Shown here piece after piece: positions 3,016-27,193 of a stretch of 27,193 bases of DNA. Made by a program: the position numbers and the translations under genes. The DNA is from Rhizaria sp. SCN 62-66 (taxonomy: Eukaryota): contig MEDY01000077.1 of assembly GCA_001724265.1 (NCBI GenBank), positions 62,001 to 89,193 of the forward strand, in the 5' to 3' direction. Numbering within the stretch: the stretch's first letter is position 1; every line of letters starts with the position of its first letter. Below the pieces are notes generated by a model. It was not told the origin of the DNA. It saw nothing but the letters and a program-made list of their open reading frames with translations, and did no database searches.

Positions 3016-3788
3016 TCAATCCATGCCTCCCGCGGCGAGGCCGACGAACTCGGACCACCACGCACTGCTTTCCTTCATCACGGCCTCGCAGCGCGCCTGC
3101 ACCATGGGCACCGAGACGCCGCTCTGCGCGCGCGTGTAGTCGCCCACGCCCGTGGCGCCCGAGAAGACGACCGTGTCTGCGCCCTTGCACGCGCTCGGGA
3201 ACGTCGTCTGGCAGTGGTCGAACCCGCAGTAGGGCTCCAGCTCCTCGCTGAAGTACCACCGCAGCGGCGGCGCGGACCGCTTCTCCGCCAGCGCTGCCGC
3301 AACCGAAGACGCCGTGGCGTCGCTGCGGGTCGGGTCCGAGGCGCCGGGCGCGGTGGGGGCCAAGTCGGTGGCGTCGAGCACGGTCAGGGGGTCGTCGTCG
3401 TTGTGGGCCGTGATCGAATAGTCGGTCCCGTCGTCGCCGCAATAACAGCAGCAGAAGTTGCGTTCTACACAGAAAAAAAAACAGCATTCAATATTATCGC
3501 TAAGTTAGTGTTACGCACTTCAGTATTGACCAGTCCTAGTTCGATTGTGGCGAGATAGAGCAAAGATAAGTGGTTTAGCTCAACAGCGTATCATTGGTGG
3601 GGCTTGAAGAGTGAAGACGTACCACGACGCGGGTAATTTAGTGCGTTGTTGATGCGCTGTTCAATTGACATGCTGGCGGTAAAGGGGTGCAGGCCAGCAG
3701 CTGGCTCTTGTGCGTTGGCAAAAGCAGGGAGCCATGCCAGAGAGCCGCAGAGAGCGACAAGAAGGAGCGTCAGCGACATCACGCCCAT
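3016..3788 (-). CDS. Small secreted cysteine-rich protein of unknown function (~204 aa, 2 exons)
   Basis: Exons 3788-3623 and 3464-3016. The intron GTACGT...ttttctgtgtAG joins them in frame (YPRR-ERNFCCCYCGDDG). Hydrophobic N-terminus MGVMSLTLLLVALCGSLAWLPAFANA-QE resembles a signal peptide. TGA stop at 3018-3016. Confidence 0.75.
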
Positions 3789-4166: not shown

Positions 4167-4715
4167 ATGTCTCTTGCCGACACCCCCGAGGACCCATGGA
4201 ATCAAGGTACGTCATCACAGGTCTATCATTGTATCTCCAACTTACCCTGAAGCCTATACTCATGTACTCACGGTTATCTCTCAATATGCGTCTCCTTTGT
4301 TGCACAGTCATCACGGTCTACGTCAAGCAGCCCACTGGCAAGACCCTCAGCTTCAAGGTACGTTGCAGAGCTATATATCGCCGCAATGACTTGGCTACAT
4401 GACTACTCCGTTATTCCCCGTTGCATTTACTACTATACTTTGACGCGAGCGTTTGTATGACCGAAATAACACCACCACAATCACAATTGACTCACCCCTC
4501 CGTTCGCCCCTCTTCTTATACGCTGTTTTCACTTTCAGGTCAAGAAGACCGACTCGATCCTGACCGTCAAGCGTTCTGTCCAAAAGTTCGACGGCTTTCC
4601 TCCCGCGTACTCGACGCTGTCGACGGACGACGGGGAGGTGCCGGACGAGTCGGAGCTGCTCATCAACCTCAACATCGGCGACAACTACACCTTCAACAAC
4701 GAGTACAAGTATTAA
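4167..4715 (+). CDS. Small ubiquitin-like protein lacking C-terminal di-glycine (88 aa, 3 exons)
   Basis: Exons 4167-4206, 4308-4357, 4539-4715; both introns GTACGT...CAG. Product MSLADTPEDPWNQVITVYVKQPTGKTLSFKVKKTDSILTVKRSVQKFDGFPPAYSTLSTDDGEVPDESELLINLNIGDNYTFNNEYKY* follows ubiquitin motifs (IFVKTLTGKT, SDTIENVK, EGIPP, YNI). Confidence 0.85.
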
Positions 4716-7455: not shown

Positions 7456-7699
7456 TTAGTAGTCGTCGTCGCCAAACAGCCCGCCCGAGGACGTGTTGCT
7501 CTTGCTTCCAGAGCTGAAGAGACTGCTGTGAGCGCTGCTTCCGCTCTTGTTCGCACCGCCGCTGCTGCTGCTGCTGCTGCTGCTGCCGAGGCCGAGGCCG
7601 AGTCCATCGTCGTCGTCGTCATCGAACACGCTCTTCACAGCATTCTTAGTGCTAGAGCTGGTAGCAGGCTTAACCGCAGTCGCAAAGGCAGTCGCAGAA

Positions 7700-7737
<38 letters not shown>

Positions 7738-10700
7738 CTTGGTCACAGCAGTAGCGGTGGCGGCGGCGGCACTAGCAGCGGCAGGCTTCGCTTTGGGCTG
7801 TGCGAAGAGATCGTCGTCGCCCTCGGCTGCGAAGATGTCAAAGGACACAGACTTCGCCTCAGCCTTAGCAGGCGCAGGCGCAGGCGCAGGCGCAGGTGTG
7901 TTGCTCGTTCCAGCAGCAGTCGCAGAAAGCTTCCCACTGGCATTGCTAGACTGAGCAACAGCGGTAGGAGTCATGCCAAACACGCCGTCGGCAACCGTGC
8001 TTCCGCCGACCAGCGCCGCCGCCGCCGCAGTCGAGGTGAGATTGTACCGGCTGCTGACGCTGGCGCTGTTGTTATTGAAGGGCAGCGACGGCGACCGCGC
8101 GAACCCGTCGATCGCGTCGTCGTCCTCGGCGAAAAGGGCCGAAATCGCGCTCTTAGTCTTGGTCTTAGCGGTGTTGTCGTTGTCGTCATCGTCGTCGTCG
8201 TCGCCGAATAACGAGTTCCTATCCTTCTTGCCCTTCGCAACAGCATTCTTCGTCGTGGTCGTCAAGCCAAGTGCTGCGAGCCCGTCACTGGCACGGACAC
8301 TGGCACTGGCGCTCGAGCTAGAGCCAGAGCCGGCGGAAGCAGAGTCGGCGGCCGCGTCGGCGTTGGTGACAACGCCTGAACTCGTGAGGAACACGGGCAT
8401 CGACTTGAGCGCGATCACCGGCGCTGCCACGGGCGCGGGCGCAGGCGCAGGCGCAGCAGCAGCAGCAGCCGCGGCAGCAGCAGCAGTCGCGGCCGCGGCG
8501 GCAGAAGCAGCGGCGGCGGAAGCAGCGGCCGACTTAGCGTTACTCCGCCCATTGGTGTCAACAACGCCGCTGCCGAAGATGGCGTCGAGGTCGGGGTCAA
8601 CGTCCTTCTGCGCCGCCCTCTTGGCGCCGCCCGCGGCGGACGTGGACGTGAGTCCCAGGTCGGTGCCCAGTGACAACTCGTCGGCGTCGAGCGCGCCCAG
8701 TCCGCCGGAGACCTCGGCCACGCCGAACACGCTCACGCTGCCCACGCTGCCCACGGTCGCCGTCGCCGTGGCCGCCGTGGCGGTCGAGTCCGCAGGTGCG
8801 GCCGCAGTCGCAGAGCGAGCGCCAGACTCGGCCGCGCTATCGCCGCCGCCGCTGCCGTGCACGTCGACGTTGTTGTCGGAGCTGAAGAGCGCGCTGAACT
8901 CGTCCTTGGCGGCGCGCGCCTTGGCCGGGTCCACCCACGTGGCCGGCGCCAGCGCGCCCACCATAACCGCGTGGTGATCGGTCACACTGCCGCTCGGATG
9001 ATCGCCGTTGGCGTTGCTCTCGGCGGCCTCGGCGGCGGCGACAGCAGCCAGCGCGTCGGCCTCGGCGGCGGCGTACGCAGCGGCCGCGGCGGCGTAGGCG
9101 GCGGCCGCGCTGTTGATCGCGCTTTGCTGGGAACCGGAACCTGTGCCCGTACCAGTGAGGGCTGAACCCGTGAGGGTGCTTGCGGTGTTGTTCGCGGTGA
9201 AATGGACGCCGCGCATCTTCGGCACCACAACCACACTGGAGCCAGCACTCGCGCTCGCGCCGGAACTCGCGCTCGTCGCTGCGGTGCGCTGCGTGTTGTA
9301 CGTGTTGCTGGCGTTGGACGCCGAGTAGTAGGACGACCGCGCGCCGGCATAGCCCGTGCCTCTCGCGTTCCCGCTTCCGCCTGTAGCAGCGCCGCCAGTC
9401 CCCGGACCAGTGGTCCCCGCGGAACCCGTGGGACCCGTGAGCGTGAGTGGGCGGACCCCAGCGGTGTTGGCGCACGGCAGCAGGGCGACGGCGGCGCGCG
9501 TGGAGGTGACCAGCGCTGCCAGTGCAGAGCGGGACACGGGCACGGTCGCGGGCACGACAGCGGCGGGCTTGGTCGTCGCGTCAGAATCAGCATCAGCATT
9601 AGCATCAGCATTAGCAGCACTGTCATCGTCAGCGTTATGCTTACCGGCGTCAGTCGTACGTTTATCGGAACCCGTGGTGGTACCGGTGGGGGCGCCTGTG
9701 GTGACGCCCGTGACGTCGCACAGCGCGGCGGCCGTGGCGAGCAGCTTCGTCGTGATGTCGCGCGCCGCAGCGAGCTTGTGCCCGCACGCGTCGATTTGAC
9801 TGGGCAGGATAAGGGGCACGCGTCGCATCACGCCCTTGCCAGCGCCCGCGCTCCGCACAGCGGACGAGCTCTTGCCGGCGCCCGCGTTGCCGCTGCCGCT
9901 GCCGCTGGTGTTGCTGCTGCTGCCGGCGCCTGTGACGCCTGTGGCGCTGAGAGCGGAGTTCAGCGACGCGACGGCCGTGTCGAGGAACGACGTCAGGGTG
10001 GACGCGCGCAGACTGCCGAACATGCCACGCACGCCGCCACTGGTACTCCCACCAGCAGCAGCGGTGCTGGCGCTGGACGTGCTGGAGGCGGTGGGGGACG
10101 CGGGCTTAGCGGCGCTGGACTTAGAGAGAGGACCGGCGGAGGCCACGGCTGCCATGTCGCGCTCGTCCTAAAACGATAAGAAAAAAAAATGATATTGACA
10201 CCGTATGTGAGAGAAATGATTCGAAAATAATATAAATTTCATACGTAGTAGTAAATAACACGTTGATAAAAAATTGAAGTAACTCGATAAGATGCACATG
10301 AAACGTACCTGCTCGATGAGCGCCTGCACCGTGGCCCTCAGGTCCTCCGTCGTCGCCGCCGCCGCCGCAAGCTCTGCCCCAGCCAGCGCCAACGCAGTCA
10401 CCTCGACCGCGACCGCAGACGCCGCACTGGAGCTGCTGCTGTTCGGGCTCGGCTGTGCTGCGACGGCGCCCTCGGCTCCCGCCCCGGCCTCGCCCATAGT
10501 AGCGCTCGCGGAGGCCGTGACGTTGGGCTGCGCCTGGACCTGCACGGCCCAAGCCGAGACCTGCGCAATGCGCTGCCGCAGCGCCGCCAGCGCGTCCTGC
10601 ACGGACGCGGGCAGCGCCGCCGCCGCGGCCGCCGCGGCGCCCGCGCTGGCGCGTGCCCACGCGAGCCTCTCCGCGCGCTTGTCCAGGCGGGCCTGGCGGC

Positions 10701-13060
10701 GCGCGGCGCGCGCGGCGAGCGCGGCGCGGCGGTGCGCGACGCGGGCGCGGTGGCGGGCGCCCTGGGCCGCGGCGCGCGTGTGGGCCGGCGCCGTCACGCG
10801 GTCGGGCTCGGACTCGTCGCCGCCGGAGCCATCGTGGTAGAAGGCCATGTCGAGCTCCTCCTCGTCGTCGTCCTCCGCCGTCACGCTCACGAGCACGCCG
10901 CCGCCAGAGCTGTTATGGCTCGAATTGTCATCGGGAGACTGTGCGAGGTAGTGCGTGTCGGGCGCCGGGGCCCAGATCATGTCGGGCGCGAGTGTGAAGG
11001 TGAACGGTGCGGCGTTGAACACAGACTCAGCCTCAGCCGCAGTCGCACTGCTGCTGCTCTCAACCGCAGCAGAGCCAGCCGCAGTCGCAGTGGCAGCGGC
11101 AGTGGCGGGGGAACTTGCTGAGTCAGCAGTGATATGAGCGGGGATATCGCAGGGCAGCACGGGGGGAACGCCTGTGGTCATGGTGACGGGGCCGTTAAAC
11201 ACCGCGCCCACGGGGGTCCGCTGTCGCTCCATGAGGTACACCGCGGCGTGCGCAATGGTCTGCACGTTCTCCACGTTGCAGTAGCGCATGAGACGCTTGA
11301 GTGCGTACGCGTAGTCGCCGAAGAGCACGTCCTCGCGCGCGTAAACGGCCATCGCGACGCACACGTAGTCGATGAGCGGGAACGGGTGCGAGTAAGACAG
11401 CACGGCGTCCCAGAGCACCGCCGCGTCCTTGAGGTGGAACTCGCGGGTGAAGAGCAGCCGCAGCCAGCGCAGCAGGAACACCACGGGCGGGATTTGGTGC
11501 TCCGTGATGTGCGCGTGGACAGCCGGGTCGTAGCGCTTGAGCAACACGTCGAAGATGTAGCCGCAGCGGTACACGATCGGGGGCTCCGACTCGCGGTCGC
11601 CGTCGCCCAGCGCGCCGCCGCGGCCGCTGCTGCTGTGGCGGCTGCCGGCGTGACCGTGAAGGTGACCGTGGGAGTGACCGTGGGTGCGGGAGGAAGGCGC
11701 GCCGCGGACGCCGGAGTTGAGCCCCGGCCCGCTGCCGCCGTGACCGCCGCCGCCCCTCGCCGCACCGGCACCAGAGCCAGAGCCAGAGCCAGAGCCGGAC
11801 TCGGTGGCGGTGCTGCCGCGGGTGTTTGTGGAGGTTTGCGAGGACCGGGGCTGAGGGTCCAGCGGGTGCAGGTGGGTGTTGCCGCGGCGAATCGCGTGGG
11901 CCGTGGAGTAATACGGCTCCAACTCGCGGAGAATCTCGGTCAGGAGATGGAACGCGTCGTGTTCGATGTACTTGGGATCGAAGATCACGCGGAAGGCTTC
12001 CTCTTCCTCTGCAGTTAGAGTCACAGAGACACTGGCGTCGTCCATCGTCTCAGACTCAACCTTCTCGCTCTCCGTCGCAGCATCACCCGCCGCGGACGCC
12101 GTGGCGGCGTCTGTGGCGAGTGCGTGGAGCAGCATCGCCGTCAGCTCGTTCATGCCCTGGCGGTACGAGCACTCAGGGTGCAGCGACGACCACGTGAACA
12201 GCACGTTCATCAGCTGCGACTGCGTGGCACCGTGCTTGAAGAACGCCGTCGTGGGGTGTGTGCGCGCCAGATCGCGCTTGATGGTCCCGCACAGCTCGTT
12301 GTTCTGCAGGTATCGCGCCCAGAGCGAGTCCTCCCCCACGGCGAGCGGGTTATTCGCGCGCAAGTCGACCTTGTGGCGGCTGCCGTCCTCGCCCAGCGCC
12401 TCGTCGTCGAGCGGGTTGACCGCGAAGCGCGCGAACGCAGCCTCGTACTCTGCGCGGCGCGCTGTCGCGGCGGCCGCCCAGCCGCGCGCGGGCGTGTTGC
12501 GGGGGAAATATCCTGTGAAGAGGCGCCAGAAGAGGGTGCGGAGGTGGGAGGAGAGGAACGACGCGCTGCGGGCTTCGGCGCGCAGGGAAAGCAGCGCGAA
12601 CGAGTCGACGCGGCCGTCGTTTTCTAACATAGTCGCAGTTGCAGTTGAAGTCGCGTCAGCGCTCTCGCTAGCGCTCGCAGTCGCAGTAGCAGTGGCAGCA
12701 GCGGTGCTCTTTGCGTTAGCGAGGGGCAGCGCCGTGTCGAAGGGGAGTTGGCTGTTGCTCGCGGAGAAGGCAGTGGCAAAGCGCCGCTTGAACTCGGCGC
12801 GGGCCGTGTTGGGGCAGGCCGTGAGACCGAGCTCGACGAGCGCAGAGGTGTCGGTACCGATAATCATCGCAAACGTGGTGTCCTCCTCCTCTTCGTCGTC
12901 GTTGCCGTCGCCGTGGTTATTCTCGTCGTTGTCGCCGTCACAGTCAGCATCCTGCTCCTGCTGCTGCTGATCACAGTCACCATCAGCGTTCGCGGCGTCA
13001 GCAGAGCTGTTATCAGGCTCGTCGTTGGCAGAGTATGTTTTAGTCTCGGCGCAACTATTG

Positions 13061-13128
<68 letters not shown>

Positions 13129-13158
13129 AGCAGCTGCTGTAAGGGCAGAGGGGCGCAT
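7456..13158 (-). CDS. TBC1D5: TBC1D5-like Rab GTPase-activating protein with a long low-complexity C-terminal tail (~1853 aa, 2 coding exons)
   Basis: Exons 13158-10309 and 10167-7456, joined in phase 0 by a GTACGT...ttttAG intron (IEQ-DERDMAAV). TBC catalytic motifs IKRDLART and YRQGMNE are intact. LRTLFWRLF, NNPLAVGEDSLW, EHDAF and LRWLRLLFTREF match the TBC1D5 subfamily. TAA stop. Confidence 0.88.
13066..13125 (-). repeat. (AGC)~20 trinucleotide tract encoding poly-Ser at the TBC1D5 N-terminus
   Basis: Uninterrupted gct/ctg run on the + strand; the translation gives about 20 consecutive Ser. Confidence 0.9.
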
Positions 13159-13805: not shown

Positions 13806-14874
13806 ATGGCTAGCAGCCCTGTCGGCCAGCAGTCGTCCTTCTCCCGCATGCTGTCGTACATCGGTACGTGTTCTTCCTATCCGCGCTACTCCTGTGTCTA
13901 TCCGTATCTTTCTCGCTCTTATCTGGACTCGCTCCGGCTGCTCGACCTGCCTAACAGTTTGTCGATGTCCGTTGTTGCTCAATGCTCTCTGCTCAAGTCT
14001 CGCTCACATTATTCTTGCTCTCTCGCTGTACGAATATGGTATCCTTTATTTTAACATTGCTCCCCTGTGTAGACACGCCGCAAACCCGCCAGATTCTGTG
14101 GGACGTTGTCAAGAACGCCGCCATCTTCGCCGGCTCCGTCCTCCTCTTCCGCTCCGGCGCCGTACGTCTATTTTCAACCATATATCTCGCCCAACCAAGA
14201 GTGCATATATCTCTCACTGTTGCAATACGTGTTTATGGTGTAAATATAATGTATGTTGTTGTCTAGTAGTGCTTTGTCTCTATCTGGGATCTATATCTCA
14301 CTTCTCTTGAATCTTTTTTCTTTCACACCACCCATGTAGCTCGACGGCTACATCGTCGATGTCGCCCCTGTCAAGACCAAGGAGCCCCGCAACAACAACT
14401 TCGGCACCCTGGCTCCTCTGCCCTACGCGCACTCGCCCTACCCCGACGAGGACCAGCGCCTCATCTCCGAGTTCGACAAGGACTACGTCCAGCGCCAGGT
14501 ACGACAACGAAGACACTAAATCGACGATTCGGAGACATATCTCACGCTGAACACGTCGCATGTTCTGCAGGGCAATGCCAATAGTGTATATGTATTAAAT
14601 CCCTTAATTTTGAGTCTTTATGGATTTATTTAGCAGCATATCTCACCAATTTGTGTTCTTTATTTCTTTTTATTTAACGCCCCCACACAAAACCTCGAAT
14701 TGTGCTCTGTTTGTTGTTGTTGTTTTTGCGCGAGTGCAGGAGAACTCCGACGCGACGAGGCGTGAGATTCTGCACAACCCGCGGTACCGGGAGATCCGCG
14801 ACCAGAAGTACAAGAAGACTCGCAGTGATGTCGAGAAGGAGAGGGAGCTGGCGCAGCAGAAGCAGGAGGAGTAA
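13806..14874 (+). CDS. Small single-pass membrane protein, Tom6-like N-terminus with a hydrophilic C-terminal extension (146 aa, 4 exons)
   Basis: Exons 13806-13863, 14073-14161, 14340-14498, 14740-14874. Donors GTACGT, GTACGT, GTACGA; all junctions in frame. Product MASSPVGQQSSFSRMLSYIDTPQTRQILWDVVKNAAIFAGSVLLFRSGALDGYIVDVAP...ELAQQKQEE*. The gene model is solid; the Tom6 likeness is tentative. Confidence 0.8.
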
Positions 14875-17091: not shown

Positions 17092-19611
17092 ATGGATCAG
17101 TACGCGAGTCCCCTGAGCGCCGGCTCCGAGCCCAATGGTCAGCCCTACATTACGGCCCTGTTCAAGCAGCTCGGCCAAAAGATCGCCCACATCGTGCGCC
17201 AAGACGGCCAGTACCTGTCCCCTCTTTTGGCGAGCTTCACCGCCCGTATGATCACACTCGAACAAACGGGCCGTTTCCCAGTTGAGGGCCCCGCCGCGGT
17301 GGCGTCCCTCCCGCCCCAACTTGAGGACGAGCTCATCCAGCTGACCATCGAGCGCGCTCTCGTCCAAAACGACCCTCTGTACGAGACGGTCAAGATGCAG
17401 ATCACGTTCGAGAGCTTCTATTCGATGGAGCTCCAGCGTCTGCGCGCGCGCCAGGCGGCTGAGGAGCAGGCCAACGCGTCGCTTCTCGACTCGATTGTGC
17501 ATATCGGCACCAACCTGGTCTCGTCGCAGCAGGTTGCAGCGTTATATCGCATGATCTTCAAGCTTCTCATGGCTAACAGCGCCGTCGCTGAGTCCTCTCG
17601 TGACCGCGTCGTGGAGCGCGAAGTCGCCGTTGCGCTCGAATCAGTCTTCCCCCAGGCCGGGCTCAACGCGTTCAACCTGCTCTCGCCCGCCGACAAGCGC
17701 CGGCAAGTGACAAACTTGGTCAACATTGTGTTGGGCATCCGTCTTTTCAACAAGGAGATCCGTCACGGTGGCGCGGGCCTCCCTGACGTGCCCACTCTGC
17801 TCGTTGCCGAGACCGATCTGCTGTACGAGCGGCTCGAGGCCGAGGCGCAGGAGATGGGCGACATCTGCTTCACGCTCACGGACCTCATCTCGCTTGAGCA
17901 GCAGCGCCCCGGCACGCTCCTCGCCAGCACAAAGCGTCTGCAAGACGAGGTACGTCCTTTACTAACAAAAACAACCATAGCGAAATGATAAATGTCAATC
18001 AATTGGATTTAAATGTCCACTAAATGTGTAATTAATCATGGTTTCTTGTTTTATCTCGAAATATGAGCACTAGTGTTTCTTTAGTTCTCACAAAACCTTC
18101 CTTCTGTCCTTGTTTGTTCTTGCACAGCTGCTGAACCGCCGCCAGTACGTGCTGCTGATCCACCAGCTGCAGCACGAGGTTGTCGAGTCCCTGGACACGG
18201 CCAAGCAGCACCGCGCGGCCCTCGAGGACCAGCTTGCGCAGCTCAAATCCATCGTCGGCATCCGCACCTCAGTCCCCAAAGAGCAGGTTTACCCCACGTT
18301 CCACGTCATTGCGACGGCATGGCTCGCACTTATCCGCGAGCGCGAGCGTACGGCGCTGCGCACGGCGCTGCTTGTGCAGCTGCAGCAGTTTCGCACGTCG
18401 TTCACGGCCGCCCGCGTCGAGGACGACTTGCCGCAGCTCAAGCACCTCATCCCGGAGGGCCAGGAGCCTCTCCCGCAAGTATGTTTTGAAAGATAACTGA
18501 AGTAATCGAAAATATATTTCGCTATATCTAAATGTAATTTAGCTTTACAGTGTTAACGTTGCTGAATCTAATTTGGTTTTTTTGCAATTTGCGCTCTATA
18601 TATCTCACTTTTTGTGTTTTATTGTGTTGCTTTCTCTAGGGCATCACTCTGACTGCATCTGGCGCCGTCGACTTCGACGCCTTTGTCGAGACCGTGGTTG
18701 ACTCCGACGCCGGCAGCGGTTCCTCTGCCGCCGCCGCGGCCGCCGCTGCGGCCGCCGCTGCCTCAGCCCGCGGCGAGGACCCCGCCGCCGCCGCTGCCGC
18801 TGCCGCCGCCGCCGCGTCGCGCCCGCAACGTTTAGTGCGCGAAACGACTCTGAACTTCATGTCGCTGCCTTTGGAGCACCAGGGCTACTGCAGCTGGGCC
18901 ATCGTCATGCGCGCCGGGCTGCTGATCAGCGGCAACCCCGCGCTGGGCATCATCCGCTACCGCGGCCGCCACTACTCGTTCAGCTCGCTGACTGCGATGC
19001 GCGACTTCTGCATGGACCCGGATAAGTTCGTCGACGGCGTCGTGCTCATGGCGCGGCACCAGACGGCGCTGATCCACCTCCTGGGGCTCACGTCGGTCAT
19101 CCCCAACTCGGACATCAGCGAGTACTTCGACCTTTTGGACGCGAGCGCCGACGGCGGTGTCGCATTGGGCGCGCCGCACCGGTCAGACGCGCAGACGCAG
19201 GTCGGCGGCAGCGAGTACATCAACACGGACCTGCCGGAGCCCGGGCTGGAGTGGAACGAGTGGACGCTGCGCAAGCGTGCGATTCAGATGGCGAACCTGT
19301 GTGACATGCGTACCGTGAGTACGCAGACCGAGAGCTCGCACTTCCGCCGCGACAACTCGACGCAGACGTACACCAAGTCGGTCCAGAGCGATGGGACGAT
19401 GCCCGGCGTCGGCACGCAGACCGGCATCGACAAGGGCACCAACGTCGAGACTGTTAAGAAGTACCACTTCGGTCTCCGTGGCCAGCCCAACGCGCAGTAC
19501 AAGACGATTGAGGTCGTGACGCAGGCGCAGGTCGTGGACGCCAGTAACGGGGATTTGCGCAAGATGGCCGATAAGATCATCACGCGGCCCATTATCCGCG
19601 AGACCAACTGA
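17092..19611 (+). CDS. CFAP206: Cilia- and flagella-associated protein 206 (~726 aa, 3 coding exons)
   Basis: Exons 17092-17949, 18128-18478, 18640-19611 (donors GTACGT, GTATGT; phase 0). Motifs ETVKMQITF, ALESVFPQ, IVLGIRLFNK, TSVPKEQVYPTF, GYC...GLLISGNPALG, WNEWTLRKRAIQMANL and HFRRDNSTQTY match CFAP206/C6orf165. TGA stop. Confidence 0.92.
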
Positions 19612-20222: not shown

Positions 20223-21440
20223 TTACTTGGAGGCAGCAGCAGCCTTGGCAGCGGCCTCCTCAGTAGCCACAGCGCGTTGCAAGTGCTCGAGAAAGCCGCC
20301 AAGCATGTGCTCGAGCTGGTTTAACGCGTCGATGTTCGGCGGCAACGCAGTCAAGTCAACACCAAGATTACTCGCTTCAGCATACGAGTTTGCACTCGTA
20401 TTTGCACCATCAGAGGAAGCGTTCGCAGCAGACTCGTCAGTCATAGCAGAGATAGAACTGGCAGCGCTGCCCGCATCACTTGACTGAGCGTTGCCGCTGT
20501 TGCTGTCGTCAGTGAGAGAGAGCTGTGCGGTGGACGCAGTGATTTCGCGCTGAAAGCGACGTGAAAGCGCCTGAAATTTCAATTAAAGAACATTAACAGG
20601 TTGGTCGCAAAGAAAACAGATGAGATACAAACCAGTTTGTGGTCGGTGTGACTGTCGATCGTGCCAGATATGGTGTTCATTTTAGTGTGTTTGGTTAAGG
20701 TCAGACAGACGCCCATGTCTCCACGGGGTACAAGATAAAGAATCACAAAGTTTCATATGTCCCTATCTATGAGTATCATCATAAACACAATTTCACAAAA
20801 ACAAACAAAAATCAGCCGCAAAGCTGCAGTCGTTGAACAATAGGTGCTGCTCCAGCAAGCTCAAGCTCTCAAGCAACGACACGCTGTTGGCAGAGTCAAG
20901 CAAGGAATCTTGATGAAGAGCGAGAGTTTGGAGCTTCGCGTATAGTCAGTGACAACAGCAACGTTGCTATGACAATGATGCAATAGGGGTGTTACGTACA
21001 CTGATGAGTTTGTTTGTGCTGCAGATCATGCCCTGCAAGTTGTACGTCAGCACGCTGTGCAGGTCGGGCAGCGCGTACACAGCCCCACGAGACAGGTCGT
21101 CGCCGTTGTACTTCATGTCCTTCGCAACAACAACATACGCGGCCTGCAGCACGACAGCGTCGCGCGACTTCCGCACCTGGCGGTTGATCACGAACATCTG
21201 GCCGTTGGTGCGGTCCGGCATGACCTAATACTCGAGCCCCACAGAGGTCTCCGGGTTCACGGTCAAAGTGGGCTGGAAACGCTCGTTGTTGCATGAACGG
21301 TCATAGAGCTCCGTGCAGCTAAAGTACTTCAGCACGTTCGTGCGGGAGATAAAGCCCGTGGTGTTTTCATCCTGCTGCAGCCACGGGAGGAAGAAAACGG
21401 GCGGCCGGTTGAGCTCCGATTCGCGCGTCCACGGCTGCAT
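20223..21440 (-). CDS. MED6: Mediator subunit MED6 with one in-frame TAG at codon 72 (recoded codon, nonsense allele/pseudogene, or sequence error)
   Basis: Exons 21440-21000 and 20570-20223, phase-0 intron GTACGT...tttcAG. NVLKYFS..LYDRSCNNE, VGLEY, MFVINRQVR, AAYVV and GAVYALPDLHSVL are MED6 motifs lying on both sides of TAG 21227-21225 in the same frame. TAA stop at 20225-20223. Confidence 0.85.
20701..20782 (-). ncRNA. Intronic box C/D snoRNA, snR64/SNORD74-type guide for LSU rRNA 2'-O-methylation
   Basis: Sense to MED6 within its intron: C box ATGATGA (20782-20776), guide TAGATAGGGACA (20769-20758), D' ATGA (20756-20753), C' GTGATT (20746-20741), D box CTGA (20704-20701); flanks TGTGTTT/AAACACA can pair. 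The guide is complementary to conserved LSU rRNA UGUCCCUAUCUA (recalled from memory). The D'+5 rule targets the C equivalent to yeast 25S Cm2337. Confidence 0.82.
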
Positions 21441-22027
21441 CTTTCCGTGTCCTCAGACAGGATGTTTCTCGTTCGTCCGCGCAGTGCCAATAATAAGCCA
21501 AACACTTTGCGCACTAAGTAATGTTGATTTGCGCGGCTTCAATCCTGTTGACGAAGATCTTCGTGTATGTCGGCTAATTTTGAAATGGCAATCCATTCGC
21601 CAGTCTGGTCAACTCCGGTTCGCAAAAAAGGACAAATCATTTTGACCACGATTGGTCGGTCGAGCTCTCTGTTTGCCGCCCTTTTTTTCGCCTTGCGCGG
21701 GAACGTTCCCTGTGACTCATATCGCGGTTAAAACAGTAGTGAGAAAAAATAGGCGGTTTTTAATCTGAGCGAGGCATCTTATGGAATTTTTGTTTTGCTT
21801 TGAAGTGAACATGACGAGCCATGCCAAACCGTTTCGTTGTTTCGCGCGCAGGGGCCACAAGAGCATTTCGGTCACCCTCATATCTCTCTTCGCCCCACTC
21901 CCCATGTTGCTATAACTACAATTTGATCCACGTCTCACATTTCCCACTCCGTTTTTATTCCAATTTAGCCCCCGTGCGTTCTTCCCTCGCCGGGTAATTG
22001 GCCTTATTATCTATTTACAGATCCTCC
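21441..22027. promoter_or_regulatory. Head-to-head MED6/LIN54 intergenic region with CCAAT, E2F-like and CHR-like motifs
   Basis: CCAAT 21487-21491, ATTGG 21651-21655, TTTGAA 21579-21584 and 21799-21804, GCGCGGGAA 21695-21703, TTTCGCGC 21840-21847. These are short motifs, so function is inferred. Confidence 0.4.
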
Positions 22028-25000
22028 ATGAGCTTGACAACAACGACAAAGCGAGCCTCCCTCGGCGCCAGCGGCCTCCCCGCTTCGCCCTCCTCCTCTT
22101 CTTCCGCCGCTTCCGCCACTTTCCAGCAGCACCAACAACACGCTCTCTACCCGCTTGCGTCCGGTGCTTCCGACAACTCGCGCGCGAGCACATCAATGGC
22201 GACTGCGACCGACCCTTCGTCCCCGCTTTCGCGCCGGATGCTCCACGCCACCGTCATCAGCGCCACGTCGCCAGACTTATCTCTCTCAATTGCCAACGGC
22301 ACCGGCGTGTCCACGCCCGAGTCTGTGCTCCGCGGCCCGCGCTCGCAGCCGGCCTCGGGCGCTTCCACCGCCTCCGCCACCGGCTTCTCGGGCTCCAGCA
22401 GCAGCAAGCATGGCGGCCGCAGTGGCCGCAGCAGCGGCAGCCGCGCCGCGCCGATCCCCGCCGTGCCGTCGCTCTCCTCACCCCCGCCCCTCGGCATTGC
22501 GCCGGCGTACAGCGCACAGCAGTACTCGCACGCGCACTCGCACTCCGGCGGTCACGGCCACTCTAACACACACACGAGCACGATGATGCGCTTCGGCGCC
22601 GGCCTGCCCCGCTTCACCCCGACGCCGCCCGCCGCCGCCTCTGCCCACAGCCACGGCCACAGCCTCGGCCCCAACCACGGCCACGCTGCGGCCGCGGCGG
22701 CGTCTGCGGTCGCAGTCGGGTCTCTTAACGGGACCCACAACAACTGCAACAACAACCACAGCATCAACAGCACTAGCATCAACAGCAGCACCGGCGGCGG
22801 CAGCAACGGCTCCCTGATGTCGATGTCACACAACAGCAGCAGCAGCTGCTGTCTGAGCCCTGCGCTGGGCCCGACCCCGTACCCGCCCGTCGCCGTCACC
22901 GCCGCCACGCCCGCCGGTGCCCACGGTCACTTCAGCGCCGTCGTCGCCTCCTCCTCGAGCAGCAGCAGCAGCAACAGCCCTCCTGGCTATAGTGGCAACA
23001 GCGGTCACGCCAACAGTCGTCTCGCCAGTGCCAGTGCGAAACACCACGGCCACGGGGGGGGGCCTGCCTCCGCTGCTGCTGCTGCTGCTGCCGCTGCTGC
23101 TGCTGCTGCGGCAGCCGCTGCGTCTGCTAATGCGAACAACAACGCGAACGGACTGATGCCCTACGGCTTAACTTCCGCCGGCGGCCTAAATTCGCTCTCC
23201 GGCAGCGCGATGTTCGGCCCCGTCTCGCCCCCTCCGGCCCACGGTCACAGCCACGGAGGCCATTATCTCTCCAGTACGTCTGCGTCTGCTGCGTCTGCGG
23301 CCGCCGCTGGGAACACCGGCGCACACGCTCTCAACAACAACAGTGGCAGCGGCAGCAGCAGCGGCAGTGGCAGTCATGGCAACATCGGGAATACCGCGAT
23401 TGCGGCGACTGTGGGGTCGAGCTCAACGACGCTGCCGCTGCCGCTGCCGATGCCGCTCGTGGTGGGCGGCACCAACCCTCTGGCGCTCACACCGGCTCAG
23501 GGCAGCAACATGCCCGCAGGTTCTGCTGCTCACAGTCACTCTCTTGCCCACGGTCACTCCTTAGGTCACGGCCACAACCACCATCACCATAACCATCATA
23601 GCCATCACTCGTTGCACCAAATGGCCGTGGCGACGCCGCTGCACTCGCGCTCACACCAGCTGCACCACAGTACCCATGCCGCCCACAGTCACTCTGCCCA
23701 CGGTCACGGCCACCGGTCGCAGTCGCACTTGCACTCTTCGCCGTTTGCGATGGGCAGAGTCGCGCCCGCTGCCACACCCTATTCCAGCAACAGTAGTGGC
23801 ACGGGCAGTATTGGTAATGGCAGTCACAGTGCACTCACGATGACGTCATCATCGTCGTCTTCGTCCTCGTCCTCATCCTCGTCGTCGTCGTCGTCGTCGT
23901 CGTCGGTGGCCGGCAAGTCAGGAGGCGCGTACTTCCGCGGCCCCTTGGCCACGCCGCCGAGCCACTTACACGCCCACACCGCCACTCACAGCGGCAGCAG
24001 CAACAACAACAACAGCTCTAGCTCTAGTTCTGGTGATGGTGTTGGTTCGACAACACATGGCTCCAGTGACGCCACGGGCTCCAGCGACAGCGTCGCACTG
24101 GGCCGCCACCGGCGCCGCGCGCAGGGACACGGCGCGTACCCGCGGTCAGCGGCCCCCACGGGGCTCTCGGCGGCCGCGGCGGGTACCTCTGACGCTCACG
24201 GTCACCCTGAGCACGGCGACGGCCACGATGACGACGACGCCGACGACTTTGAGGGCAACAGCAACAATAATACCAGCATTGGCGACGGAAACAGCGCTGA
24301 CGGCAACGACGACTTCGACGACGACGATGAGACCAACAACAACAATGCTGCCGCCGCCGCCGCTGCCGCTGCTGCGCACAGCGCCCGCAACCGGTCTATG
24401 ATGCAGATGTGGCAGCGCTCGCGCGCGCCCGCGCACGCCAGTGCCCACTCGAGCGCCCACAGCCACGGCCACGCGAACAACAGTACTAGTGCGCGTGCCG
24501 GCGGGAATGTAAGTGGGAATGTAAGTGGGAACGTCAGTGTGACGCGCCAGTCGCTCCGCGGCGGCTACAGCGCGGGGGTGTACCTCTCGCTCCACACTGG
24601 CACTGGCACGCCCCCCTCGGCCTCGGTCCCCGCCGCCTCCGCCTCCGCCTCCGCCGCCGCCGCCGCCGCCGCCGCCGGTGCCGCTGGCGCGAACAACGGC
24701 ACCAACAGCGGCAGCGGCGGTGCCAACAACGGTGGACTCGGTCGCCGGAGCAGTCTGAGCAACATGAGTGCCGGCAGTGCGATCGCCGGTGCTGCTAGTG
24801 CTGCGGGAGCGACTCGCGGCACCCGCAGCCACAACAACCACAACGATGGCATGAGCGGCAGCAACAGCGCTGGTGGTGTCGACGACGACGACACCGACGA
24901 CCTTGCGTACAGCTCTCTCAACGCGAGCTCGGTCGCGAACGGCGCCGACTTAAGCTTTGACGCCAACGGCACCGGTTCAGCGGCCTCGTTATCGTCGTCC

Positions 25001-26997
25001 TCTGTCACCGCGACGGGCGGAGCCGTGCCCGTGACTGCCCCTCTGGCCGCCGCCGTCGCCGCCGCTGGCGCCGCGGGCGCTGGCCACCAGCCGCACACCA
25101 AGACCAAGGGCTGCAACTGCAAGAAGTCCCGCTGCCTGAAGCTCTACTGCGAGTGCTTCGCGCGCCAGGGCTACTGCGTGGGGTGCTCGTGCACGTGCTG
25201 CCACAACATCCCGCGGCACGACGAGGCCCGCCAGCGCGCCATCCAGCAGACGCTCGACCGCGACCCCAACGCCTTCTTCCGCGGTGTCAACGCGGGGCTC
25301 GTCGGCGCCGCCACCGCCGCCGCCGCCACGGCTGCCGCCGCTGCCGCCGCTGCCGCCGTGAGCGCGACCGGCGGCGCCGCCGCCGCCACCGGGGGCGCTG
25401 CTGGGGGGGCGGGCGCCGCGGCGGGCGCGGGCTCTGTGGGCGGCGACGGCTCTGCGATCGATCCCGACGCCGACCCCGCCGCCGCCGCAGCAGCAGCCGC
25501 CGCCGCCGCCGCTGCCGCCGCCGCCGCGGCCGCCGAGTCGGCCGCAAAGCACCGCAAGGGCTGCCACTGCAAGAAGAGTGGGTGCCTGAAAAAGTACTGC
25601 GAATGCTTCCTGGCCGGCGTGGCGTGCGGCGCGCACTGCAAGTGCCTCGACTGCCGCAACGGCACCTGCAGCAGCAAGCGCGACGACGGCGCGGGCACCG
25701 GCGCCGGTGTCGCTGCGGCGGCTTCCGCTGCGGCGGCGGCATCGGCGGCGGCGGGGGGCCATGGTGGCCACAGCCACGGCCACAATAGCAGGTCGGCCGC
25801 GGCCGCTGCTGCTGCGGCGGCGGCGGCTGCTGCGGCTGCTGCGGGCGCCGCTAGCCACAGGGGCAACGATGACGGCGACGACGCTGACGTTGCGTTGGAG
25901 AGCAGTCACAGCCACAAGCCCCATGGGCACGATGCTGGTGCTGCGGCTGCTGCTGCTGCTGCTGCTGCGAGCAGCGGTTTGTTGGGCAGCAATCTCATGT
26001 CGCTCACTGCCCACGGTCACCACGGCCACGGTCACTCTGCCCACAGTCACTCTGCCCACAGTCACTCTGCTCACGGTCACAGTCAGTCGTCGTCGTCACT
26101 GGTATTTACGCCGGCTCGTGGCTTGATGCCTGCACACAGTCCCATGCCGCAGTCAGTCGACCCCACGGGCACTGCGTCCGCGCTCAACATTCACGGCCAC
26201 CACAGTCACAGGCTCCACGGCCACTCTGCTCACGGTCACGGTGTGCTTGACTCGGCGAGCAACGGCTCTGTCGGCTCTTCCACTGCCCATAACAACAGCA
26301 GCAACAACAACAACAGCAGCAGCAGCAGCAGCAGCCTGACCCTGGGTCTCGACCTCACCACCCCCGGCCCCGTCGTCCCCGTCGACGTCGCCACCGGCGG
26401 CCTCGCGGGCAGCAACGGGCTCACTGCAGGTGGCTTCACTGGCACCAGCGGACTCATGTCGCACTCGATGGACCTGAGTCTCGGCATGTTCGCGCCGTAC
26501 CCCGCGCCCGCCGCCGCCACTGCTGCCGCCGTCTCTGGGGGCGCCTCGGGTTCCGTAGCCGCCGGTACACGCGGGGGCAGCGTCACAGGTTCCGTGATGC
26601 TCGGCGGCGGCGCCGGGTTCGTCTCGCACCGCGGGACGCCGGTACGCATGACCTCGCGTACCCCCGCACACCACGCGCATCACGCAATCGGACACGGGCG
26701 CAGTCCCGCGATCGCTCTGAGCGGCGGCGTCATCTCCAACAGCGACGCCAGCAACAGCAGCAGCAACGGGGCCGCGGCCCGCACACCCGGCACGCGCACG
26801 CCAGTCACTCGCAGTCCCGCGCGCGCTGTCGGCAGCGCCATGGGCGGTGCAGCAGATGTCGACGTCGCAGCCGCGGCGGCCTCGTTCCTCGCCTTCACGC
26901 CAGCACCCCCCCTCACCACCACGAGCAGCAACAGCAATAGCAACGGCAGCAGCAACAGCAACAGCATCAGTACTGCGGCGAATGACACCGTCACTGC

Positions 26998-27035
<38 letters not shown>

Positions 27036-27193
27036 GTGGCAGTGGCAGTGGCAGCGGTGGCGACGCAAGCGCTCTGCTCACGGTCACCGCCCCCGTCGTG
27101 CTCACGGTCACTCCGGTGCTCACAGTCACCCCGACGGCGCGGCGTGTGCTCGCTCTGCCCCCCGCCCCCGCCCCCGCCCCCGCCCCCGCCCCC
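22028..27193 (+). CDS. LIN54/tesmin/TSO1-like CRC (tandem CXC) DNA-binding protein, >1720 aa, runs off the window end
   Basis: ATG at 22028. I found no stop in the stretches read by hand, and the ORF track reports no ORF ending in this frame, so it appears open to the window end. CXC1 GCNCKKSRCLKLYCECFARQGYCVGCSCTCCHN (~25108-25208), hinge RDPNAF, CXC2 KHRKGCHCKKSGCLKKYCECFLAGVACGAHCKCLDCRN (~25547-25660). The rest is His/Gly/Ala/Ser/Asn low complexity. Confidence 0.9.
27156..27193 (+). repeat. (GCCCCC)n hexamer tract at the window end
   Basis: Direct gccccc repeats; they read Pro-Ala in the LIN54-like frame. Confidence 0.85.

Follow-up and report, generated by a model that had tools for sequence, protein, structure and literature searches.

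Nuclear genetic codes in which only UAG is reassigned have been described in the rhizarian exLh (UAG as Leu), in Iotanema spirale (UAG as Gln) and in phyllopharyngean ciliates (Leu or Gln) (NCBI tables 15 and 16). By the figures given for exLh, 384 in-frame UAGs occur in 71 genes, about five per gene (PMC5304391), and the ciliate MAGs with UAG-only codes are credited with 1,131-2,431 UAGs at conserved sites (PMC11687900). In so far as these two sources describe them, UAG-only lineages carry several UAGs in each gene, at columns conserved as Leu or Gln, and tRNA-CUA genes are found where the assemblies allow (PMC5304391; PMC11687900). In-frame UAG is also read by near-cognate tRNAs in yeast, where readthrough inserts Gln, Tyr or Lys (PMC4150775). 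Two further groups that come near the present case are termination followed by reinitiation, including split proteins, and natural nonsense alleles or young pseudogenes. Basal stop-codon readthrough is usually low, and the known cases of efficient reinitiation involve short upstream ORFs or viral RNA signals.

The MED6 gene studied here is a conserved gene interrupted by an in-frame TAG, and the support for this stop as real, and as the sole allele seen, is unusually strong. It resembles the UAG-only codes in that the UAG lies in a conserved nuclear gene while UAA and UGA serve as stops and UAG is unseen at the sampled gene ends, but it differs from them in that only one UAG was found in 5,468 codons, and at a variable column. 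Like the UAGs of yeast near-cognate readthrough, it stands in an otherwise intact ORF with a conserved downstream part, at a site that would tolerate Gln, Tyr or Lys; it differs in that neither a stimulating context nor a downstream structure was found. The likeness to termination-reinitiation and split proteins lies in a same-frame AUG within 4 nt and in a break predicted to fall in a loop between beta strands. With natural nonsense alleles and young pseudogenes it shares a single one-step stop in a gene otherwise undamaged. On the other hand, the affected gene encodes a core, normally essential, single-copy subunit, and the TAG form is the sole allele in all six recorded contigs.

The gene lies on the minus strand of the window, by which we mean the whole stretch of 27,193 nt that was analysed, and consists of two exons with 262 codons (Table 1). 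Read from the ATG at 21440, the frame encodes MQPWTRESELN...SVGLEY*VMPDRTNGQMFVINRQ..., and codon 72 is the stop. The first-pass annotation had placed this TAG inside the conserved MED6 domain and had counted 190 further open codons. Both statements held: the Pfam Med6 profile (PF04934) aligns through its positions 9-124 of 133 with residues 26-147, a span that includes the TAG (E 1.1e-13; 51.6 bits, the curated cut-off being 27), and 75 codons of exon 1, down to position 21000, are followed by the 115 codons of exon 2 and a TAA.

Table 1. Features of the MED6 locus, in positions of the window.
Feature	Position	Strand	Details
MED6 exon 1	21000..21440	-	147 codons; ATG 21440..21438; Pfam Med6
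MED6 intron	20571..20999	-	429 nt; GTACGT...TTTCAG boundaries
MED6 exon 2	20223..20570	-	115 codons and TAA stop (20225..20223)
In-frame TAG	21225..21227	-	MED6 codon 72; plus strand reads CTA
ATG (Met74)	21219..21221	-	4 nt past TAG (TAG GTC ATG)

The two-exon model agrees with a relative, P0037 (259 aa), which belongs to the cluster of P0003 and whose sequence is that of P0003 up to ...ARMTE joined to P0036; P0037 is therefore a spliced product, with its intron at the aligned column of the window intron. The 262-residue MED6 model aligns with it from end to end (E 2e-35, 34% identity), with the X of the TAG facing Glu, and the N-terminus is similar to MQWTREQELN of the relative. An AlphaFold2 model built on a 26-sequence alignment reached a mean pLDDT of 88.7 and a pTM of 0.79. 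When it was compared with the PDB by Foldseek, Mediator entries made up all of the top 15 matches, including the S. pombe Med6 crystal structure (4h61), and the best match was 4h63_F (E 4.3e-8, TM 0.66/0.71). Moreover, the seven columns that are invariant in the 26 sequences (Y39, F40, Y46, N52, G68, R90 and P125), which flank the TAG on either side, are all retained. Thus, the Pfam match, the predicted fold and the full-length colinearity with the spliced relative establish the gene as MED6, as the annotation had named it, and apart from the TAG the gene is intact. The MED6 intron and the 141-nt intron of the TBC gene (10168-10308) both have lengths divisible by three, GTACGT donors and pyrimidine-rich acceptors ending in TAG or CAG.

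The TAG itself was found in independent assemblies. The source runs are wastewater, bioreactor, activated-sludge and fuel-cell metagenomes from 14 studies; 18 of the 20 listed hold part of the window, and four runs hold half or more of its words. Run X2, from a different study, yielded a 1,714-nt contig over 20740-22000 with three other letters (20958, 20979 and 21862) and the TAG unchanged, and run X4, from a third study, yielded a 2,362-nt contig over the same interval with no other letters. The JGI contig L001 is 100% identical to 20522-23672 (3,151 nt), TAG included. In a collection of 15 billion proteins, the two ORFs that flank the TAG, P0002 (71 aa) ahead of it and P0001 (84 aa) behind it, are each recorded on six contigs from four archives (JGI/IMG, Logan, ENA and MetaClust). 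Altogether, the TAG is present in all assemblies examined, which come from at least three studies with run dates of 2015, 2017 and 2025, and X2, X4, L001 and the six recorded contigs refute the base-call error that had been raised as one alternative.

Neither a word-based search nor an exhaustive HMMER search found an unbroken 157-aa or spliced 262-aa form of this MED6. The word-based search (lengths 81-259 aa, 90% clusters) returned P0001 as the sole match among six candidates, and the HMMER search of 1.84 billion representatives returned 35 proteins at E <= 1e-3, of which the best beyond the two halves from the window was P0003, at 42% identity and on one contig. A closer second copy of MED6 was thus seen in neither search. 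In all assemblies examined, the sole detectable MED6 carries this genuine nonsense-type codon. The haplotypes compared differ by three letters in about 6.5 kb, none of the three in exons, a sample too small for a test of selection; because they are this similar, the lack of further damage to the gene is no proof of selection. Two of the three, 20958 and 20979 in run X2, are SNPs in the MED6 intron. In the same run, two contigs stop at 20697-20769 with loose ends unlike the window, which suggests an insertion/deletion variant in that intron.

The residue replaced by the TAG was judged from 25 homologues. Its column holds Glu in 14, Val in four, Ile in three and Met, Ser, Ala and Thr in one each, so that Val, Ile or Met account for 8/25, Ser, Ala or Thr for 3/25 and Trp for none. 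The first-pass annotation had described the residue after GxEY as usually hydrophobic, which would have suited a TAG decoded as Leu or another hydrophobic residue. The nearest homologues carry mostly Glu, so that the description fails and the fit is not supported. The Glu-rich column instead makes a change of GAG to TAG, a single G-to-T step, the simplest origin. In the AlphaFold2 model a strand at 68-70 is followed by a loop at 71-81 and a second strand at 82-90 (pLDDT of 92 for the block 71-80), which would make the TAG the first residue of the loop. The length of the loop past the TAG column varies among homologues, and the site is, on the predicted structure, a permissive, variable surface hairpin loop.

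The sequence just past the stop was inspected for signs of recoding. The two columns that follow the TAG contain no Met in any of the 25 homologues, and the ATG of Met74 might serve as a start for reinitiation. Predicted RNA folding of the 123 nt past the TAG and of the 131 nt around it was no better than in shuffled sequences (z 0.15 and 0.46 against 200 shuffles each). The 3' context of the stop is GUC AUG, which does not conform to a leaky context of the CARYYA type. Thus, neither a leaky context nor a stimulatory downstream RNA structure for programmed readthrough was found at this TAG.

The use of UAG elsewhere in the window was counted in seven confident coding parts. The single TAG in their modelled codons corresponds to about 0.18 per 1,000 (Poisson upper bound, about 0.9 per 1,000), in a sample that includes 170 Gln, 162 Glu and 344 Leu codons. 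Among the modelled gene ends, the 5'-open gene, the PH gene and the FAP206 gene stop at TGA and the Rab, TBC and MED6 genes at TAA; in addition, the unconfirmed ORF 3016-3504 ends in TGA, and the exon-like ORFs 4491-4715 and 14340-14519 end in TAA. None of the 84 TAG-ending ORFs of at least 40 codons in the window offered a credible gene end, the best-scoring ones being an antisense shadow (3233-3421), ORFs entering introns and pieces of MED6. The shadow, an ORF on the plus strand with a high coding score, was rejected because its third codon positions coincide with those of ORF 3016-3504 on the minus strand. Two in-frame TAGs that were considered as sense codons, at 10168 in the TBC gene and at 18637 in a FAP206 exon, proved to be the ends of AT-rich GTACGT...YAG introns. 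The earlier observation that no gene in the window ends in TAG therefore stands, at 0 of 6-7 modelled ends. TAG typically makes up about 20% of terminators, and at such a share its absence from 6-7 ends has an estimated probability of roughly 0.2-0.3; the outcome is weakly unusual and, in so small a sample, does not stand apart from an ordinary low share of TAG.

The proposal of a UAG-only reassignment across the genome finds no support in the window, where TAG stands in frame within a modelled gene once, at a non-conserved column; TAG ends no modelled gene. Since that column is variable, the site names no amino acid. The 27-kb window does not show many UAGs at columns conserved for one amino acid, and it holds no tRNA gene and no Rfam match. 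Genome-contig scans with the 298-aa ORF 17092-17985 and with TBC exon 1 returned no further contigs of the organism, and the metagenome-contig scan returned only the MED6 locus (L001). A classical, well-used reassignment of UAG is excluded for this window.

The host is an uncultured, intron-containing, GC-rich eukaryote of wastewater and bioreactor metagenomes, and its FAP206 domain gene suggests that it is flagellated. Two or more exons encode the FAP206 domain, with profile positions 53-155 falling at about 18110-18496 and positions 175-268 at 18640-19611; the 298-aa ORF upstream of them on the same strand gave no Pfam match and no usable protein-atlas match. Very long ORFs at 22028-27193, 7456-10167 and 2-2536 are dominated by poly-Ala, poly-Ser, His-Gly and Gln runs, and an open frame of 1,722 codons contains two Tesmin/TSO1 CXC domains (E 2.8e-22). 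The TBC intron has no in-frame TAA or TGA, so that 13158..7456 forms one frame of 1,905 codons if its TAG is discounted; the second exon of the TBC gene (903 residues) gave no Pfam match. ORF 3016-3504 on the minus strand (162 codons) has a high GC3 and a cysteine-containing motif, and also gave no Pfam match. Runs X2 and X5, from one study, contain contigs about 86-90% identical to the window at 17140-17294 and 19249-19533. One of them has 40 other letters in 285 nt, and the differences within 17151-17280 are almost only at third codon positions. These contigs were absent from X4 and X14 at both places, and they point to a co-occurring sister lineage.

Two runs labelled as RNA-derived were compared with the locus. 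In the polyA run X5 the TAG is uncovered by contigs, and the bin 21084-21317 has a depth of 0.03. The contigs of this run at 20722-20953, 20907-21085 and 21468-21677 represent the intron, an unspliced exon-intron boundary and the upstream spacer, and they may be DNA carry-over or pre-mRNA. Since they include unspliced intron, X5 does not demonstrate expression of MED6, and it gives no sign of editing either way. The cDNA-labelled run X14 has zero contig cover of MED6 exon 1. Neither the run contigs nor the exhaustive protein search put a spliced or expressed form of the MED6 in the window on record.

As the explanation of this TAG we tentatively favour a Glu-type codon mutated to a stop under the standard code and tolerated through readthrough or reinitiation, to which we assign a probability of about 0.35, a value that, like our ranking of the other readings, rests largely on priors. 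Most likely, one G-to-T change would have turned the Glu codon GAG into TAG at the first residue of the surface hairpin loop. UAG would keep its standard meaning in the organism, and we infer that MED6 function would be kept because the stop is bypassed in translation. The bypass might take place by readthrough with a near-cognate or suppressor tRNA, which would place a residue at a position tolerating almost any. Alternatively, ribosomes might terminate and then start again at the AUG 4 nt further on, producing fragments 1-71 and 74-262, which could assemble because the break is in a loop. In favour of this reading are the presence of the TAG in all assemblies examined, the failure of the searches to find an intact form or close second copy, the otherwise undamaged gene, the permissive site, the adjoining ATG and the residues inserted at UAG in yeast. 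Against such a bypass are the 3' context and the predicted RNA folding described above; moreover, eukaryotic ribosomes normally reinitiate poorly past a 71-codon ORF, and a stop ahead of an intron would normally be expected to trigger mRNA decay.

The simplest molecular reading is a null allele or young pseudogene, in which the stop ends MED6 at residue 71 and the gene no longer works, its function being dispensable in the lineage or supplied by a copy missed by the public assemblies. One step from GAG is what such a mutation would be expected to take in a column with Glu in most homologues, and, because the strains compared are near-identical, a recent nonsense mutation would still be without other damage; a second copy could be missed since contig depths are low (about 4-7), and the record holds no spliced or expressed form of this MED6. 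On the other hand, MED6 is a core Mediator head subunit that is essential in the model organisms tested, and neither the 1.84 billion representatives nor the 90% clusters yielded an intact allele, a duplicate or a relative more than 42% identical. Both halves of the gene are recorded on six contigs and the best other match on one, the TAG recurs throughout the assemblies examined, which represent at least three studies, and a random inactivating mutation need not have fallen at a loop with an adjoining ATG. We regard a dead gene as only slightly less likely than a bypass. Less likely again is that UAG is sense, or ambiguous and poorly terminating, throughout a genome that stops at UAA and UGA, as an early reassignment of very low usage decoded by a CUA-anticodon tRNA or by efficient near-cognate reading. 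It would make a TAG in a single-copy core gene cost-free and would fit its absence from all modelled gene ends and credible ORFs, and reassignments of UAG alone with UAA and UGA as stops do exist, as the two sources on them report (PMC5304391; PMC11687900). However, the one TAG in the window compares poorly with the hundreds of UAGs in the exLh genes and the thousand or more conserved sites in the ciliate MAGs that these sources give, its only site is a variable column, and the window is without a tRNA gene. The more specific form, in which UAG no longer serves as a terminator, is decoded or very poorly terminated genome-wide and has so far entered only a handful of genes, MED6 included, is slightly less likely still.

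Two other explanations we consider very improbable. A-to-I editing at the middle base would convert UAG to UIG, read as Trp. Such editing of premature UAGs is known in some filamentous fungi and animals, and the described fungal editing favours the U-A-G neighbourhood that is present here, at a site where varied residues are tolerated. However, the surrounding RNA has no stable hairpin, no homologue has Trp at this column, and the Tesmin/TSO1 CXC and FAP206 flagellar proteins encoded in the window do not suggest the ascomycetes with such editing. An artefact, either an error of sequencing or assembly or a mis-modelled intron that would remove the TAG, is the least probable of all. The contig is of metagenomic origin and modest depth, and TAG is common here as the end of a 3' splice site, as in the TBC intron and one FAP206 intron, but contigs of three studies and four archives agree on the letters of the TAG. 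An intron ending at the MED6 TAG was also considered and rejected: the conserved G68 and Y71 abut the TAG, and no insertion interrupts the alignment at this point, so that no intron can end there. The sole GT..AG pair around the TAG is 7 nt long, and its removal would shift the frame.

Finally, a stop in a core, normally essential gene should not persist unless it is bypassed or the gene is no longer needed, and this one belongs to an organism met repeatedly in the wastewater, bioreactor and activated-sludge data of several studies. If the TAG is bypassed, as we favour, MED6 would be a natural case of nonsense tolerated by readthrough or by a split protein. If the gene is dead, it would mean the loss of MED6 in a free-living eukaryote. 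The rarest outcome would be that UAG is sense; the organism would then have a transitional code in which UAG is just entering sense use, an intermediate toward a UAG-only variant nuclear code, and this is a stage that, to our knowledge, theory predicts and surveys have rarely caught.
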